Shown piece by piece: positions 660 through 38,765 of a stretch of DNA of 64,000 bases; position 1 is the stretch's first letter, and each line of letters opens with the position of its first letter. The stretch is from Thermoplasmata archaeon. Its GTDB lineage: Archaea; Thermoplasmatota; Thermoplasmata; Lutacidiplasmatales; UBA184. A program made the position numbers and the translations under genes. The stretch is taken from NCBI GenBank assembly GCA_050749465.1, contig JBOGRO010000020.1, positions 47,540 to 111,539 of the forward strand. Reading direction: 5' to 3'. The notes below the pieces were generated by a model that was not told the origin of the DNA, made no database searches, and saw only the letters and a program-made list of their open reading frames with translations.

Positions 660-1046
660 ATGGCCTGGACGCAACAGGAGATCCGCGAGCTGAAGGAAGG
701 TCGGTACCTGCTCATCGACGAGGAGCCCTGCCGGATCCTCAGCATCCAGACCTCCAAACCCGGGAAGCACGGGGAAGCGAAGGCGCGTATCGACGCGGTC
801 GGGATCTTTGACGAGCGTAAGCGGAGCGTCGTATTCCCGGTGACCCACAAGGTCCAAGTGCCGATGATCGGGAAGCGCATGGCCCAGGTGCTGTCGCTGA
901 CCGGCGCCGAGGTGCAGCTGATGGACCTCGAGACGTACGAGACGTTCTTCCTCGCCGTCGGGCCGGACGTCAAGGGGGAGCTCGCCCCGGGCGCCGAGGT
1001 CCAGTACCTCGACGCGATGGGCAAGCGCCGGATCATGCGCAAGTGA
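660..1046 (+). CDS. eif5a: Translation initiation factor 5A (aIF5A)
   Basis: 128 aa starting at ATG. The hypusine-loop motif STSKTGKHGHAKA is recognisable as QTSKPGKHGEAKARI. Size and OB-fold C-terminus are typical of archaeal IF5A. Confidence 0.92.
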   Translation: MAWTQQEIRELKEGRYLLIDEEPCRILSIQTSKPGKHGEAKARIDAVGIFDERKRSVVFPVTHKVQVPMIGKRMAQVLSLTGAEVQLMDLETYETFFLAVGPDVKGELAPGAEVQYLDAMGKRRIMRK

Positions 1047-1105: not shown

Positions 1106-1112
1106 TTTATAA
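1106..1112 (+). promoter_or_regulatory. Archaeal TATA box (TTTATAA) upstream of the giant repeat-protein gene
   Basis: A perfect TTTATAA in an otherwise ~70% GC context, just after the aIF5A gene. GTG at 1134 and ATG at 1143 (same frame) lie 25-34 nt downstream, as expected for a leaderless or near-leaderless transcript. Confidence 0.55.
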
Positions 1113-1816
1113 GGTGGTCCGGGCATCAATCGGGTGCCCCGGATGCCCGAACTCCGTTCTACGGTTCTGGGGGTCTAGGGGGGAAGTCCACGTCGGGAGC
1201 CGGCAACATCGGAGGCGTCGGGTCCTCTCGCCTCACGAGAATCCTACAGGAAAAGGCCGAGGCGCTGAAAAAAAAGCGCCAATCGGCGGAGTCGCGCCAG
1301 AAGGAGGCGGAAGAGCAGGTCGCGCTCCTGGACGCGCTGGGGATCTCCCCGTCGGAGGCCCCCGAACGACTCACCCAGCTGCGGGAGCTTGCCCGACGTT
1401 CGGATTGGGACGGCGTCGAGGAGCAGGCGAAGGCGCTTACCGAGTACCTCGGACGGACCGTCCCGAACTCGATCGAGAGTCGTCGGAAGCGCACCGTCGA
1501 AGCCGCCGGCGCCCTCGCGGGAGCCGGGGTCACCGTCCCCGCCACGATCTCGAAAGAGCTGAACCTCCTCGAGCACCCTCCCGAGGGTTCCACGTGGTCC
1601 GCGACGGTCGACCGTCTCGCGAAGGTCGAGCTCGCGCTCACGATCGCTCAGGAGCAGTACGTCGCGGCCGCCCGCACCGGCGCGCTCGCGGTCGGCCAAT
1701 GGATCGGCCTGAGCCCGGAGCGATCCGCGGAGTTCCACGAACTGATCGAGGCCGCGGCCGCCCCGGCGGCCGACGGTCGCGTCGTCGAGGCGATCGACCA
1801 GATCCGTCGCTCGCTC

Positions 1817-4800
1817 TTGGAAGGACTTCCGGAGGCGCAGGCGCGCCGGGAGGAGGTCCGGGCCGCCGGGACCCGCATCGTGGCCGAGGCGCGCGAGTTC
1901 GGCGCATCAACGACCCGTCTCGAGGCGGCGGTCCGCGACGACGGCGACGCGACGCCCGAACGATGGCCCGAGTCGGTCCGCGCGATCGAGGACGCGATCG
2001 TCGAGGTCGGCGAGGGGTTGCGCGAACGCGGCGGCCAGGCGCTCGACTCGCTCGCGGTCGCGCTCTCCGCGACCAAGGATTACGGCGTCGACCCGGCCCC
2101 GGCGCAGGTCGCGGTCGAGGAGGCGGTCGCCCGGATCAAGACCGCGACGCCGCTCGAGATCATCCCGCTCCTCACCGAGGCCCGCCGGGCCGCCGAGGAG
2201 CCGATCGTCGCGGTGGTCGCCGGTCTTTTGGATGAAGTACGGCCCCGCATCGCCGAGGCCCGCCGGCTCGGTCGGGACCCCTCCGACGTCTTCGCGGCGA
2301 TGAACCGGGCCCGCGAGGCGCTGAGGCTCAAGATCTACTCCGAAGCGCTCGCCGCGAGCCAGGAAGCGGTCGACCGCGTCGGCCGCCTCACCGAGGACCT
2401 CGAGATAGTCCGCGACGAGCTCGCGGCGGTCGAGGAGATGCTCGGGCGCCTGCGCCGCGTCGGCTTTGTCACCGACGCGTTCGACACGCAGGTCCAGCGG
2501 GTCACCGCGTACGTCGAACGGGCGGAGGTGCCGCACGCGCGCGACCTCCTCAAGGAGACCGTCCTCGCGGTCGGACGCGAGGCGTTGCAGTTCTTCCTCC
2601 AGCGATGGAGCTCGCTCGACGGCGTGCGGGAGTACGCCCGGCGGCGCGGCTTCTTGCCGGCGGAGATCGACCGGGAATTGACCGACGTACACGGACTACT
2701 CGAGTCCGGGAACCTCGCGGAAGGGGTCGAGCGGCTGGCGAAGGCCGAGGTCGCACTTCGGACGGCCGCCGAGCCGTTCGTCGCGCGGCGGATCGAGGAG
2801 ATGGAGAAGGGGTTTGCCGACCTCCCCGACGAGACCCTCGCGGCTCCGACGCGTCGGCTCCTCGCCGACGCGGACGTCACCCTGCGGATCAAGCGGGACG
2901 TCATCGGCTCGGTCGAGAGCCTCCGTCGCGCCGAGCGGGACTTCGCCGCCGTCTTCGCCGCCCACGCCTCGTCGCTCGTGGAGGAGCTCGAGGTCGAGGG
3001 GCGGGTCCTTGAGGCGATGGGCGGCGCCGGCGACGAGATCCAGCGCCAGATCGACGAGGTCCAACAGATCTTCAACATGGGCGATTTCGTCCAGGCGTCG
3101 CGCGCCTCCCAGGAGATCCGTCAGCGCGCCCGCCAGCAGCAGCTCCTCCGCAGCGAGGAGGCGGTCTCCCACGCGAAGCTCGCCCTCGTCGAGCTCGAGA
3201 CGATGGGCCTTGACCTCACGAAGTTCCGCGGTCAGCTCGAGTCGGCGCAGTCGAACGCGCGCGCGGCCAAGTACTCCGAGGCGTACAGGGGCGCGAGCCA
3301 GCTCGAGGAGTCGGCGGGGCGCACGTGGACGACCGCGCAGGAGATCCTCGAGGCCCTCAACCACGCCCAAGATCTCCTCGGCCGGGTCCGCGAGTCCGGC
3401 AGTGATGCGAGCTCGTACTACGAGCCGCTCCGCGACGCCCGCGTCGCGTTCCAGGCGCTCGACTTCGACACCGCGCGGGCGAAGCTCGAAGCGGTCCAGC
3501 GGGGCCTGGGCGACGAGGAGGCGCGCAGCGAGACGGGCCGGCTCCTCACGGAGATCGAACGGATGGTCGAGGACGGACGCCGGCTCGCGATCCCGATGGA
3601 AGCGTTCGCTGCCCGGCTCCACGGCATGCGGACCGAGCAGGCGACCGCGGCCCCCGAGGCGACGCGCACCCAGGCGAGACTCGTCCACGAGGAGGTCGTC
3701 GCCCTCCTGCGGCCGGTGCTCGAGGAGAATCTGCGGGGCCTCGAGCGGGACCTCGACATCGCCCGAGGCGCGGGCGTCGACGTCGACCGGATCCTCGCCC
3801 CGCTCTCCGAGGCCCGGCGGCGGATCGCCCTTCGCGTTCCGACCGGGGCGGCCGCGCTGCTCGACGAGGCCCGCGCGGAGTTCGTCGACACGCGCGGTTT
3901 CGTCGAGCACGCCGAGCGCGTCGCGAAGCGGGCGCGCGAGGCGCTCGCCCAGGCCGACCTCCTCCACGTCGAAGCGCCCTCTCTGCGCTCCGCGATGGAG
4001 CGGCTCGAAACCGGGCTCGCGCAGCGGCAGTACGCCCGGGTCGTCGAGCTCGGGGGCCCGCTCGAGCGCGAGCTCCTCCAGGCCACGTACCAGCACGTTT
4101 CGAAGACGCTCGCGAACTTCCAGGCGATGCTCACCCGGCTCCGCCGGGAGGGGAGCGACACGACGATCGCTGAGAACCTCCTCCACCAGGCGCGCATGGC
4201 GCTGGACGAGGGGAAGGCCGTGGAGGCCCTCCAACTTGCCGGCCGCAGTGAGTCCGAGCTCGAGCGTGCGGACCTGCAGCGACGCGTGGCGGAAGGCTCG
4301 GTCCAGGCGGCCGAGCGCTCCTTGAACCGCGCCGTCAGCGAGGGGGTACACGCCCCCGCCGCCGCCGCCGAGGTCGCCGCGTCGAAGGCCGCGTTCCAAG
4401 AGCGGGACTATCCGACCGTGCTCGAGCGCGCGCTGAGCGCGTCCGATGCGCTCGGGGTCGCGCGCGAGAATCACCGGCGGGCCAAGGAAGCGCTCGGGGC
4501 GGCCGACCGGCAGCTGGCCGAGGCGACCGGCCTCGGTGCGGAGGTCGCGGAAGCGGTCGCGCGCCTCGCGGGCGCGCGTCGGACCGCCGAGGTGGGGCAG
4601 TACCCCGAGACGATCCGCGGCGCCCGCGAAGCGACCGAGATCGCGCGCTGGGCGATCGAGAAACTGTTCGCCGGCCCGCTCGGCGAGCTCCGGCAGCTGG
4701 TCGAGCAGGGCCGTCGCGAGAAACTGACGACCGAGCTCGACCCGGTCGAGTCGATCGTCGCGGAGGGCGAGTCGGCGCTCCGGGCCCGGGACTGGGGTCA

Positions 4801-5740
4801 GGCGCGCGAAACGATCGACCGCGCCGGCACCGCGGCACGACGCGCGTTCGAGTCGGTCATCGACGAGCGATGGCGCGAGGTCGAGGCCGACGAGGCGCGG
4901 GCCGGCCCGGTGCTGGCGGCCGAGGCGGCCCGACGCGACGAGGTCCGCCAGCGACTCGCCTCACTCCGATTGCAGCGGGACTACCCGGCCGCGCTCGATC
5001 TCGTTCGCAGCGAGCTCGAGCTCGTTCGGCGCCGACGTCGCGAGCGGGTCGACGCGCGCATCGCCGAGCTGAAGGGTCAACTGTGGGTCGGCGAGCGCCT
5101 CGGCCTCGACACGACGCCCGTCATGCAGACGTTCAGCGAGGCGCGCAGCGCGACCGACGCCGGGCGGCTCGAGGACGCGGACCGACTCCTCGCGGAGGCG
5201 CTCCCCGCGCTCGAGAAGGCGGTGCGCGAACCGCTCTCCCGGCGGCTCAAGGACGTCGCGACCGAACTCAATTTCGCCCAGGAGGGTCTCCACGTGAGCG
5301 TCGGCCCGGTCGTGGAGCGTCTCCGCGAGGTCGAGGCGCTCGAGCGGGACGGCCACCCGGTCGACGCGAGCCGTGCGCTCCTTGCCGCCGAAGAGGACCT
5401 CAACCTCCGCAAGTCGCTCCACCGCGAGCTGACGAACCTCCACTACCTCATCGATGCCGCGCTCGCGCGCGCCCAGCAGAACCGGATGGACACCGCGCCC
5501 GCGCGCCAGCTCCTCTCCGAGTCGATCCGGATCCGGGAGACCGACTACGTCGCCGCGCTCGAGAAGTCCCGCGAGGCGCTCCGACTCCTCCAGGGCGAGG
5601 CGCCGCCGCCCGCAGTCCCCCCCTCCGTGACCCCCGCGGCGAGTTCCGACGCGCCCGCTTCGGAGAAGGCCGCGACGCCCGCGCCGACCACGACCCCCAC
5701 GTTCTGGCCCTTCCGCAAGCGACCCCCCAGCGGCGGGTAG
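1817..5740 (+). CDS. Giant all-alpha helical-repeat / coiled-coil protein (A/E/R/L-rich), function unknown; true start probably upstream near 1134-1143
   Basis: 1307-aa ORF from TTG at 1817. The same frame is open and coding-like back to 1106 with no ATG/GTG/TTG. It contains repeated modules with a recurring aromatic-x-x-A motif (KIYSEALAAS, KYSEAYRGAS, RDYPTVLERA, GQYPETIRGA, RDWGQARETI, RDYPAALDLV, TDYVAALEKS). The C-terminal tail is P/T/A-rich. Confidence 0.8.
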   Translation: MEGLPEAQARREEVRAAGTRIVAEAREFGASTTRLEAAVRDDGDATPERWPESVRAIEDAIVEVGEGLRERGGQALDSLAVALSATKDYGVDPAPAQVAVEEAVARIKTATPLEIIPLLTEARRAAEEPIVAVVAGLLDEVRPRIAEARRLGRDPSDVFAAMNRAREALRLKIYSEALAASQEAVDRVGRLTEDLEIVRDELAAVEEMLGRLRRVGFVTDAFDTQVQRVTAYVERAEVPHARDLLKETVLAVGREALQFFLQRWSSLDGVREYARRRGFLPAEIDRELTDVHGLLESGNLAEGVERLAKAEVALRTAAEPFVARRIEEMEKGFADLPDETLAAPTRRLLADADVTLRIKRDVIGSVESLRRAERDFAAVFAAHASSLVEELEVEGRVLEAMGGAGDEIQRQIDEVQQIFNMGDFVQASRASQEIRQRARQQQLLRSEEAVSHAKLALVELETMGLDLTKFRGQLESAQSNARAAKYSEAYRGASQLEESAGRTWTTAQEILEALNHAQDLLGRVRESGSDASSYYEPLRDARVAFQALDFDTARAKLEAVQRGLGDEEARSETGRLLTEIERMVEDGRRLAIPMEAFAARLHGMRTEQATAAPEATRTQARLVHEEVVALLRPVLEENLRGLERDLDIARGAGVDVDRILAPLSEARRRIALRVPTGAAALLDEARAEFVDTRGFVEHAERVAKRAREALAQADLLHVEAPSLRSAMERLETGLAQRQYARVVELGGPLERELLQATYQHVSKTLANFQAMLTRLRREGSDTTIAENLLHQARMALDEGKAVEALQLAGRSESELERADLQRRVAEGSVQAAERSLNRAVSEGVHAPAAAAEVAASKAAFQERDYPTVLERALSASDALGVARENHRRAKEALGAADRQLAEATGLGAEVAEAVARLAGARRTAEVGQYPETIRGAREATEIARWAIEKLFAGPLGELRQLVEQGRREKLTTELDPVESIVAEGESALRARDWGQARETIDRAGTAARRAFESVIDERWREVEADEARAGPVLAAEAARRDEVRQRLASLRLQRDYPAALDLVRSELELVRRRRRERVDARIAELKGQLWVGERLGLDTTPVMQTFSEARSATDAGRLEDADRLLAEALPALEKAVREPLSRRLKDVATELNFAQEGLHVSVGPVVERLREVEALERDGHPVDASRALLAAEEDLNLRKSLHRELTNLHYLIDAALARAQQNRMDTAPARQLLSESIRIRETDYVAALEKSREALRLLQGEAPPPAVPPSVTPAASSDAPASEKAATPAPTTTPTFWPFRKRPPSGG

Positions 5741-36291: not shown

Positions 36292-37605
36292 ATGACCGGC
36301 GAGGCGACGACCCCGGCGATCGTGCCCGAGTTCGGGCCGCTCGCCGGCTTGCGGGTGCTCGAGTCCGCGCGGTTCGTCGCGGGCCCCTGGGCGGCGACGT
36401 ACCTCGGCGAGTTCGGCGCCCGCGTGGTGCACGTCGAGGGTCCGCCGTTCGGCCCCCCCTACGCCGACGCCACCCGGTCCCTCCGCCCCCTCCTTCCCGG
36501 AGGCGCCCCGGGCGACGAGGTCTCGGAGTCGTGGGTGCAGTACTCCCGGAACAAGCTCTCGGTGGGCCTCGACCTGCGGAGAAGCGAAGGTCGCGCGGTC
36601 TTCCTCGACCTGGCCCGCGCGTCGGACATCTGGATCGAGTCGTCGCGACCGGGTACCTACGACCGGCTCGGACTTACGGACGCCGAGATCTGGTCGGCGA
36701 ATCCCCGGTTGACGATCGTCCACGTCTCGGGGCACGGTCGGACCGGCGACCCCGCACGGGTCAGCGCCCCGTCCTACGACCTCACGGCGCAGGCGTTCAG
36801 TGGCTACCTGTCGTTGCAGGGGCGACCCGACCCGGAGCCTCCGATGCGTTCGGGCACGGCGCTCAATGACACCGTGACGGGCCTCGCCGCCGCTACGGCC
36901 GGACTGATGGGGTACTTCCACGCTCAGCGGACGGGGAAGGGACAGGCCGTCGACGTCGCGCAGTACGAGATCTTCTTCGTGCTCCTCGAGAACCTCGCGC
37001 TCGACTACTTCATGCGTGGGGTCGTCCGGGGTCGCTTCGGGACCGGCCACGCCCGCCTCCATCCGTACGACGTGCACCGGGCCGCGGACGGCTGGGTCGT
37101 CGTCGCGGCCCCGACGCCCGACGCGTGGGCGCAGCTCAAGGGGGTCCTCGGGTTCACCGACCCCGCGTACGACGACCGGGACTACCGCCTCGCCCACCGA
37201 GAACCGGTCGACCGGGCCATCGCGGCGCTCTGCGCTACCCGTACGCGAGACGAGCTGGAGCGGATCGGTCGCGAGCATGACGTGGCGATCTCTCGGGTCT
37301 TCGACATCGCCGACATCGCGCACGACGAGCACTATCGCCGTCGCGAGATGTTCCTGGAGTGGGACGACCCGGTCGCGGGCCGGGTCAAGGGCGCGGGCGT
37401 CGCGCCGAAGTTCTCGGCGACGCCGGGGGGCGTCTGGCGCGGCGCCCCCTGGCTCGGACAGGATAACCGATCGGTGCTCGCGGGTATCCTAGGGTATCCA
37501 CCGGAGCGGATCGACGAACTTCGACGGTCGGGGGTCGTGGGAGACCACCCGCCGACCGCATCGGCGGCGAGATCGGAACCGAGGTTCCGACGGGAGGGAC
37601 TCTGA
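36292..37605 (+). CDS. Family III CoA-transferase (CaiB/BaiF family)
   Basis: 437 aa. GPLAGLRVLE...AGPWAATYLGEFGARVVHVE at the N-terminus and the interlocked-dimer length are typical. The conserved Asp region is LNDTVTG. Confidence 0.85.
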   Translation: MTGEATTPAIVPEFGPLAGLRVLESARFVAGPWAATYLGEFGARVVHVEGPPFGPPYADATRSLRPLLPGGAPGDEVSESWVQYSRNKLSVGLDLRRSEGRAVFLDLARASDIWIESSRPGTYDRLGLTDAEIWSANPRLTIVHVSGHGRTGDPARVSAPSYDLTAQAFSGYLSLQGRPDPEPPMRSGTALNDTVTGLAAATAGLMGYFHAQRTGKGQAVDVAQYEIFFVLLENLALDYFMRGVVRGRFGTGHARLHPYDVHRAADGWVVVAAPTPDAWAQLKGVLGFTDPAYDDRDYRLAHREPVDRAIAALCATRTRDELERIGREHDVAISRVFDIADIAHDEHYRRREMFLEWDDPVAGRVKGAGVAPKFSATPGGVWRGAPWLGQDNRSVLAGILGYPPERIDELRRSGVVGDHPPTASAARSEPRFRREGL

Positions 37606-38765
37606 CGTCGTCGCTCCCCCCGCTTCCGGAGGACCCGCTCGCGGAGGAGATCGTCGCCGCCGCGCGCGCGCTCGACCTGCCCCGGCGGTACCGAGAGCTC
37701 GACCGGAGCCCCGCTTTCCCGCGCGAGGAGTTCCGGGCGCTGGGGAGGGGCCACCTCCTCGGACTGAGGACCGCGGAGTCGCTCGGGGGTCGGGGGCTCC
37801 CGCTCCCCCGGGTCGGGGTCGCGCTCTTTCGACTGGCGTACGAGGCAGGCACGACGTTCGCGAAGCTCTCGCTGCAGCCCGAGTTCTCTTCGGTCCTCGC
37901 GGAGCACGGGCCGCCCGAACTCGTCGACCGGTGGTTCCGCCCGATGCTCGCGGGGGAACGACTCGTCGGGAATCAGATCACCGAGCCGTCGGCCGGGTCG
38001 GACGTCAGTGCGATCGAGGCGACGGCCGACCTGAAGGGGCACGAGTACCGGCTGAACGGGACGAAAAGCGAGGTCGCGTTCGCCGAGGAGGCGGACGCCG
38101 CGATCGTCTACGCCAAGGTCCCGTCGGCGGACCCACGGCGAGGGATCACCGCGTTCCTCGTCCCCCAGGACCTCCCGGGCATTCACCGCGAAGCCGGCGC
38201 CGGCGACCTCGGGGAGCGCTGGCAGCGGCGCGGCACGGTCCGCTACGAGAACGTGCGGGTGCCGGCGGACCATCGACTGGGAGCGGAGGGGGCGGGCCTC
38301 GATCAGGTGCGCGGGGAGCTCACTCGCGAACGCGCGCTGCTCGCGGCCATCTACCTCGGGGTCGCCCGCGCCTCCTGGGAGGAGACGGTCCGCTATGCGG
38401 GGGAACGCGTCGTGTTCGGGAAACCGCTGTCGGCCCAGGAAGCCGTGGCGTTCCCCCTGGTCGAAGACGGCGTCGCCCTCACCGCGGCCTGGCTCTACAC
38501 TCAGCATGTCCTCGCTCGGTTGGACGCCGGCGAAGCGGTCGACGCCGACGCCGCCCTCGCCAAGTGGATGGCGACCGAGGCGGCGCTGCCAGCGATCGAC
38601 CACGCGATCCAGTTCCACGGGGGCCGGGGGTACTCCCAGTCCCTCCCGCACGAACAACGATGGCGCGACGTGCGGAGCGGCCGGATCGCTCACGGACCGT
38701 CCGAGGTCCTTCTGCGGCTCGGCGCCCGGGGGTTGTGGCCGCGGAAACCCGGCGATGGTTTATAG
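37602..38765 (+). CDS. Acyl-CoA dehydrogenase (full-length model from CTG 37602; track-supported minimal ORF is 37944..38765)
   Basis: From ATG 37944 only the middle and C-terminal ACAD domains are encoded (ITEPSAGSD, YENVRVP, FGKPL, QFHGGRGY). The in-frame upstream 114 codons encode an ACAD N-terminal alpha domain (FPREEFRALGRGHLLGL...GGRGLPL...EHGPPELVDRWFRPMLAGERL). There is no ATG/GTG/TTG there, and CTG 37602 overlaps the upstream stop as CTGA. Confidence 0.8.
   Translation: MTSSLPPLPEDPLAEEIVAAARALDLPRRYRELDRSPAFPREEFRALGRGHLLGLRTAESLGGRGLPLPRVGVALFRLAYEAGTTFAKLSLQPEFSSVLAEHGPPELVDRWFRPMLAGERLVGNQITEPSAGSDVSAIEATADLKGHEYRLNGTKSEVAFAEEADAAIVYAKVPSADPRRGITAFLVPQDLPGIHREAGAGDLGERWQRRGTVRYENVRVPADHRLGAEGAGLDQVRGELTRERALLAAIYLGVARASWEETVRYAGERVVFGKPLSAQEAVAFPLVEDGVALTAAWLYTQHVLARLDAGEAVDADAALAKWMATEAALPAIDHAIQFHGGRGYSQSLPHEQRWRDVRSGRIAHGPSEVLLRLGARGLWPRKPGDGL

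Follow-up and report, generated by a model that had tools for sequence, protein, structure and literature searches.

Probable initiation at a CTG codon of an acyl-CoA dehydrogenase gene overlapping a CoA-transferase gene in a Thermoplasmata archaeon

The window analyzed here, a stretch of 64,000 nucleotides (nt) from an uncultured Thermoplasmata archaeon (assembly GCA_050749465.1, contig JBOGRO010000020.1, positions 47,540 to 111,539 of the forward strand), carries a gene for a family III CoA-transferase followed by a gene for an acyl-CoA dehydrogenase (ACAD), the start codon of which is the subject of this report (Table 1). Its G+C content is ~70-73%, and its best protein matches are annotated as proteins of Thermoplasmata archaeon metagenome-assembled genomes (MAGs). 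Reading the segment 37300-38100 shows that the ACAD frame is open from position 37467, directly after the TAA at 37464-37466, and a codon-by-codon scan reports no ATG, GTG or TTG in this frame between 37467 and 37943, the first canonical codon being ATG 37944. The initial annotation had described the frame in these terms, and had also seen no nearby canonical start in the other frames; indeed, the only canonical start triplet in the three frames of 37500-37720 is GTG 37537, an internal codon of the CoA-transferase. The CoA-transferase stop codon, TGA 37603-37605, shares bases with CTG 37602-37604 to form a CTGA overlap, exactly as first proposed. Canonical NTGA overlaps occur at 14 other places in the window by the criteria used here, close to the 15 GTGA or ATGA junctions counted originally. 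Read from the CTG, the ACAD gene covers 37602-38765, and the segment 37602-37943, coding for the N-terminal domain, represents about a third of the protein.

Table 1. Features of the ACAD locus and of a second gene devoid of a canonical start, in window positions.
Feature	Position	Strand	Basis and remarks
Family III CoA-transferase gene, 437 aa	36292..37605	+	Pfam CoA_transf_3, E 7e-102; translation; precedes ACAD in orthologous loci too
Shine-Dalgarno-like GGAGG, inside GGGAGGG 37592-37598	37593..37597	+	4 nt 5' of CTG, in the last CoA-transferase codons (..REGL*)
CTG, proposed ACAD initiation codon	37602..37604	+	Aligned with the M/V start of orthologs; CTG likewise in L031, L040, L046, L163, L166 and L138; identical in L001 and L002
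Putative full-length ACAD coding sequence, 387 aa plus stop	37602..38765	+	All three Pfam domains (N, M, C); orthologs of 381-400 aa share 66-78% identity along 95-100% of the length
ACAD N-terminal alpha-domain, 114 codons omitted by gene callers	37602..37943	+	Codon model; invariant residues; omega ~0.13 in the CTG clade
Internal CTG, start of an NCBI-sourced 362-aa record; not a conserved start position	37677..37679	+	P0121 = M + window translation from 37680
ATG, first canonical in-frame start	37944..37946	+	List of open reading frames; start of automatic callers, giving a 273-aa product (37944..38765)
Large gene, ~1516 aa, coiled-coil-like	1106..5740 (open reading frame)	+	Downstream of the aIF5A gene (660..1046); TTTATAA box at 1106-1112

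Pfam analysis of the protein read from CTG 37602 reports PF02771 (Acyl-CoA_dh_N), PF02770 and PF00441, all above the curated cut-offs, and the three-domain architecture of ACADs (N-terminal alpha, middle beta and C-terminal alpha) is present. The Acyl-CoA_dh_N match comprises residues 27-119 and profile positions 20-113 out of 113. Solved ACADs (~380 residues) align over residues 32-378, with residue 32 of the query opposite chain residue 35; since the N-terminal offset is only ~3 residues, the length of 387 residues should be right to within ~3. A codon log-odds model, trained on ~460 long open reading frames (ORFs) of related DNA, replaced thresholds on GC by codon position, which were too strict for the window's own junction. 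It assigns the segment 37602-37943 a score of +0.29 per codon in the ACAD frame, like that of the neighbouring genes, and about -0.55 in the other two frames, while the segment 37467-37601 scores -0.45 in the ACAD frame. In windows of 16 codons, the sign flips between 37587 and 37611 and is positive from 37611 on. Pfam, the alignment with solved structures and the codon model thus bear out the earlier proposal that an N-domain is encoded 5' of ATG 37944. The window protein keeps every family-invariant residue of this domain. The possibility that some orthologs naturally lack it had been raised; the 120 best homologs, all 371-412 residues long, contain it, the sole exception being this species' own 273-residue gene call. 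At the other end of the protein, residues ~362-370 (RIAHGPSEV, window ~38700-38730) include an AHGPS segment that faces YEGTS of PDB 4u83 in the alignment, and the motif IAHGPSE is kept across the ACAD orthologs. If the Glu of YEGTS is the catalytic base, as it is in enzymes of the MCAD type, the ACAD family of the window would therefore place its base elsewhere.

Orthologous Thermoplasmata loci were collected from GTDB species genomes (80) and JGI metagenomes (80), and the start column was located in each. Orthologs of 381-400 residues begin with M/V-x-x-x-LPPLPDDP, their N-termini including MSAELPPLPDDP, VTIAMPALPDDP and MTAHLPPLPDDP; the window reads L-TSS-LPPLPEDP, so that the M/V falls on the CTG. 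Over the 160 loci, the codon of the start column is ATG in 100, GTG in 45, TTG in eight, or else CTG, and no other codon is found there among the ~160. The initial annotation had suggested examining this very codon in relatives, and the comparison returns ATG, GTG or TTG in ~150 loci and CTG in six distinct loci of other species. The ACAD gene of most of these 160 loci overlaps the preceding CoA-transferase gene by 4 nt or 1 nt, or directly abuts it, and a short gap separates the two in about one quarter. The closest relatives (72-75% identity) read ...GAGGGACT-GTGA... at the junction and the window ...GAGGGACT-CTGA... (GGGACT-GTGA versus GGGACT-CTGA).

A CTG at the start column, with no canonical codon within 25 codons upstream, is found in loci L031, L040 and L046, all of the CTGA type, and in L138, in which a TAA is directly followed by CTG, its relatives having TAG-ATG, TAG-GTG or TAG-TTG. 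In L046 the frame lacks any canonical start upstream, the next one being a TTG at +25. In-frame GTG and ATG codons at -51/-56 in L031 and L040 were considered as starts and rejected, being absent from L046 and the window and lying deep in the CoA-transferase coding sequence. A second protein search, performed with the L040 sequence, reports further members of its clade, L163 and L166 (CTGA), L164 (GTGA) and L165 (TTGA). All CTG cases are overlaps (five) or of the zero-gap type (one), and these loci originate from separate projects, namely several MAG sets and JGI metagenome contigs. Distances and a neighbour-joining tree place the CTG loci at three separate positions. The first is that of the window, among GTG-bearing neighbours, and the second that of L138, among neighbours with ATG or TTG. 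The third is a clade of the form ((L164-GTG, (L040, (L163, L046/L166)) all CTG), (L165-TTG, L031-CTG)), in which the all-CTG subclade of L040, L046/L166 and L163 has a GTG-bearing sister. The CTG state has thus arisen at least three times, and its distribution indicates inheritance through at least two speciation events in one subclade.

Nei-Gojobori estimates between CTG-bearing species give low ratios of nonsynonymous to synonymous change (omega) at appreciable synonymous divergence (dS). Between L040 and L046, omega is 0.13 (dS 0.72) for the N-domain, 0.11 (dS 1.06) for codons 2-46 and 0.10 (dS 1.95) for codons 2-25, as compared with 0.10 (dS 1.09) for the rest of the gene. For L163 against L040 or L046, omega ranges over 0.18-0.32 and dS over 0.62-1.18 for codons 2-25, codons 2-46 and the N-domain. 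Over the CTG-bearing lineages taken together, omega spans 0.10-0.28 for codons 2-25, 0.11-0.32 for codons 2-46 and 0.13-0.20 for the N-domain (dS 0.7-0.8). In L040 as in L046, codons 2-25 precede all canonical starts. Since untranslated sequence would exhibit omega near 1 as well as stop codons, these values indicate that the N-domain is translated in the organisms of this sister clade that carry the CTG. It is in that clade, and not in the window's own lineage, that omega was measured.

The spacing of 4 nt between GGAGG and the CTG is that of the GTGA and TTGA relatives, and reaches 8 nt in the zero-gap type. In 137 distinct junction contexts, a GGAGG within 20 nt accompanies 34% of the ATG junctions (30/88), 59% of the GTG junctions (22/37), 86% of the TTG junctions (6/7) and 100% of the CTG junctions (5/5). 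Fisher tests, in which relatedness is ignored, yield p = 0.006 for CTG versus ATG and p = 0.0002 for CTG plus TTG versus ATG. The junction of L163 has GGAGG as well. This Shine-Dalgarno (SD) gradient matches the compensation pattern described for GUG and UUG genes (PMC5622118). As L138 presents its CTG without any overlap, and a second gene of the window discussed below has no overlapping upstream ORF, the SD rather than the overlap suggests itself as the feature common to the near-cognate cases. In 4-nt overlaps, base 1 of the start codon is also base 3 of the last Leu codon of the upstream gene; CTC being favoured for this Leu codon, the upstream gene tends to impose the weak CTG start on its neighbour, and the two are in slight conflict. 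No TATA-like motif that might indicate an internal promoter and a leaderless start was found in 37300-37620. The window contains no tRNA genes, hence no initiator tRNA.

Altogether, a full-length ACAD encoded from 37602, with CTG as the conserved start position, is well supported by these comparisons, and the ACAD of this organism is probably translated from CTG 37602 by near-cognate CUG initiation. The proposal that this CTG is a real start draws support from the ortholog alignment, its occurrence in at least three independent lineages, purifying selection and the spacing of GGAGG. Pairing of GGAGG with the anti-SD would hold the ribosome at the junction and permit initiation on the near-cognate CUG. 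Termination on the overlapping UGA would probably also keep the ribosome there, and translational coupling thus probably contributes to initiation. The Met-initiator tRNA would start the chain, giving a product MTSSLPPLPEDP..., and the N-terminal peptides predicted under CUG initiation with Met are (M)TSSLPPLPEDPLAEEIVAAAR and (M)TAGTPALPADPLSEQVR. The output from CTG would probably be below that from GTG or ATG.

Several points weigh against CTG initiation in the window. The evidence for it is indirect, coming from evolutionary and sequence comparison. The G-to-C change in the window lineage could be recent, and later selection is not measurable there because its close genomes (L002) are nearly identical. 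The SD statistics count related loci as independent, and L163 has a TTG 12 codons downstream as a possible start. In E. coli, initiation from CUG reaches 1-2% of the AUG level (bioRxiv 10.1101/063800), and prokaryotic switches to CUG are generally rare, ~1e-4 (PMC5622118). The last Leu codon of the upstream gene, when of the CTN type, ends in C in only 4/15 cases at overlaps versus 16/29 when its third base is free (zero-gap type); owing to this under-representation, a CTG start is disfavoured, although tolerated. Some of these points suit a recent loss of the start, the main rival, in which the GTG-to-CTG change silenced or crippled the ACAD of this organism and the intact N-domain merely reflects too little time for decay. 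The nearest relatives, at 75% identity, carry GTGA, no divergence is measurable after the change in the window lineage, and the initiator is a weak one in E. coli. However, CTG has been kept in the other clade through dS >0.7, with omega ~0.1-0.3 on codons otherwise untranslated, the window retains a full SD along with all invariant N-domain residues, and the CTG is common to two sampled populations. A recent loss is therefore judged unlikely.

A sequencing or assembly error, with G as the true base at 37602 and hence GTGA, would account for the single base that separates the motif of the window from that of its nearest relatives. The junction is nevertheless identical in a Logan contig from run SRR27067711 (L001) and in GCA_974104635.1 (L002). 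Single-nucleotide polymorphisms (SNPs) distinguish GCA_974104635.1 from the window, 1 in the 6.8 kb of this region and 3 in another 4 kb, and mark it as a separate consensus. The three assemblies stem from different pipelines, yet their read sets may overlap, which counts against the CTG. As CTGA also occurs in independent MAGs and JGI metagenome contigs of other species, an artefact is improbable as a general explanation, and an error in the window itself is very unlikely. Initiation at another non-canonical in-frame codon, ACG 37605, ATC 37650 or CTG 37677, is improbable too. ACG 37605 lies 7 nt from GGAGG, and NCBI-sourced records take as their start CTG 37677 for the window, the CTG at +12 for L040 and the ATT at +16 for L046; but none of these codons is conserved as a start position, orthologs all begin at the junction column, and selection acts on the conserved residues (LPPLPEDP...) 5' of 37650 and 37677. 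The adjacent ACG, which the initial annotation had offered as an alternative to CTG, does not stand, the second codon varying among the CTG lineages (ACG, ACG, ACA, ACC, AAA, GGC). ATG 37944, from which gene callers derive a 273-residue ACAD devoid of its N-domain, has in its favour that it is the first canonical in-frame codon. Such a start is highly improbable in view of the homologs described above, of the coding potential and conservation that reach 114 codons upstream, and of the sequence 5' of 37944, in which neither GGAGG nor any other SD was noted on reading. Lastly, an ACAD frame that stays open over 45 codons 5' of the junction would suit a CoA-transferase::ACAD fusion, arising through programmed -1 frameshifting or, in L138, through readthrough. 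Frameshifting is contradicted by the missing X XXY YYZ slippery heptamer in the overlaps of the window, L031, L040, L046 and L163 and by the negative coding potential of the ACAD frame 5' of the junction; orthologs have every junction type, gaps included, and L138 would need another mechanism. A fusion is scarcely credible.

NCBI translation table 11 lists CTG, ATT, ATC and ATA as rare bacterial starts. The CTG of the window resembles these in being a near-cognate NTG that starts a normal enzyme gene and is presumably read by the initiator tRNA. It differs in being archaeal, conserved across the species of one clade and independently recurrent in one gene family. In archaea, AUG, GUG and UUG are given as start codons by reviews (PMC7531240; PMC4705826) and treated as the sole ones in these and by gene callers. 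Ribosome profiling of Haloferax volcanii assigns ~30% of harringtonine-defined alternative sites to near-cognate codons, which were set aside against false positives (PMC7261190), and in Methanosarcina mazei CTG is assigned to 5% of new small ORFs (PMC11456600). Both studies, like the present locus, suggest that near-cognate codons are usable as starts by archaeal ribosomes. Their sites may be false positives or belong to small ORFs, whereas the evidence here is evolutionary and bears on the main start of a conserved enzyme.

Termination-reinitiation coupling at stop/start overlaps (ATGA, GTGA, TGATG) is documented in archaea and bacteria (Huber et al. 2019, PMC6728339; follow-up PMC10666635). 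The ACAD locus shares with these coupled pairs the co-directional arrangement, the 4-nt overlap and the SD inside the upstream ORF, an architecture also present at 14 other window junctions and at most orthologous junctions; in contrast, the restart codon is CTG here, and the text of PMC6728339 does not contain CTG or CUG. The same weaker start-stronger SD relationship was reported by Belinky, Rogozin and Koonin (2017, PMC5622118), who excluded CUG as too infrequent, while the order ATG < GTG < TTG < CTG found here extends the trend to CTG within a single gene family. Over 36 genome groups, these authors count switches to CUG for 2/61,358 AUG, 1/5,080 GUG and 1/2,468 UUG starts. Given the frequency of ~1e-4 in such general surveys, it is unusual to see, among ~140 junctions of a single gene family, six distinct ones with CTG and inheritance of this state within a clade. 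Eukaryotic near-cognate initiation, controlled by eIF1 and eIF2 (PMC4705826), likewise uses CUG, and also ACG as in the second gene, and archaea possess the homologs aIF1 and aIF2. It differs from the present case in that no scanning is involved here and the start is linked to an SD and to an overlap within an operon. What would be new is near-cognate initiation at a stop/start overlap in archaea, with conservation between species and a link to SD strength. If so, the comparative evidence implies that archaeal species can share CUG as the principal start of a conserved metabolic enzyme, and the locus would offer a natural test case for the stringency of start selection by aIF1/aIF2 and for the tolerance of near-cognate codons in termination-reinitiation.

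Public annotation of these genes already uses non-canonical starts, but away from the conserved column. Prodigal-type calls of 273 residues (P0028, P0122) occur in the Logan and NCBI assemblies, while the NCBI-sourced P0121 (362 residues) starts at CTG 37677. The L040 record (379 residues) starts at the CTG at +12 (L040 3037), that of L046 (375 residues) at the ATT at +16 (L046 3049), and that of L031 at a TTG at +67. The earlier statement that callers reject CTG is thus correct for standard callers, which cut the ACAD to 273 residues because they accept ATG, GTG and TTG alone; it does not extend to the NCBI-sourced records, which use CTG or ATT at other positions. As a result, the ACAD is listed publicly with 273 or 362 residues instead of a probable 387, and the second gene with 1307 instead of ~1516, and domain- and structure-based annotation of MAGs inherits such start errors.

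This second gene, the ORF 1106..5740, is besides the ACAD the only one flagged by a scan of the window for coding sequence 5' of the first canonical start. Its first canonical codon is TTG 1817, from which callers derive a product of 1307 residues, and its coding potential begins near 1226. Homologs of its product begin with MSG..PSSRLTRILQEKAE or MG..PSSRLTRILQ. DNA alignment of the window with L169-L172 defines two conserved start positions, A and B, occupied by ACG (1190) and ATC (1208) in the window, GTG and GTC in L169, ACG and ATG in L171, and ATG at both positions in L170 and L172. The window alone, among these five aligned loci, has no canonical codon at either A or B. A G-rich SD, GGGGGG 1178-1183, lies 6 nt 5' of ACG 1190, the gene has no overlapping upstream ORF, and the bases of the start region are the same in the other two assemblies of this species. 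Since two genes of a single 64-kb window are devoid of a canonical start, the ACG and ATC of the second gene hint that start selection is relaxed in this lineage. A broader reading fits the two genes and the recurrence of CTG in the ACAD family, namely that high-GC soil and peat Thermoplasmata have a relaxed stringency and maintain CUG, ACG and possibly AUC as true starts of ordinary genes wherever the ribosome is kept in place by a strong SD or a stop/start overlap. This idea is tentative and rather doubtful; if true, such relaxation would parallel, in archaea, the near-cognate initiation of eukaryotes, and would systematically escape gene callers.

A survey of 421 distinct genes in ~0.96 Mb of related Thermoplasmata DNA flags only the ACAD loci, the second gene of the window and the CoA-transferase genes of L063 and L074; small and insensitive, as it detects only extensions of at least 35 codons, it gives no evidence of widespread CTG use. 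A junction survey with the codon log-odds model finds no further CTG restart outside the ACAD family. The CoA-transferase genes of L063 and L074 were dismissed as start-less candidates, being frameshifted instead. Their coding sequence is split between two frames (L063 2473-2982, L074 2321-3004), by an assembly indel or in a pseudogene. Upstream of the second gene of the window, L169, L170 and L171 share a conserved short motif, GGCATGAA, 12-13 nt beyond the TATA-like box, and the window reads GGCATCAA at 1124-1131. A different ORF, of 11 codons, runs in the window from ATG 1143 to TAG 1176-1178, ending just 5' of the G-run SD.

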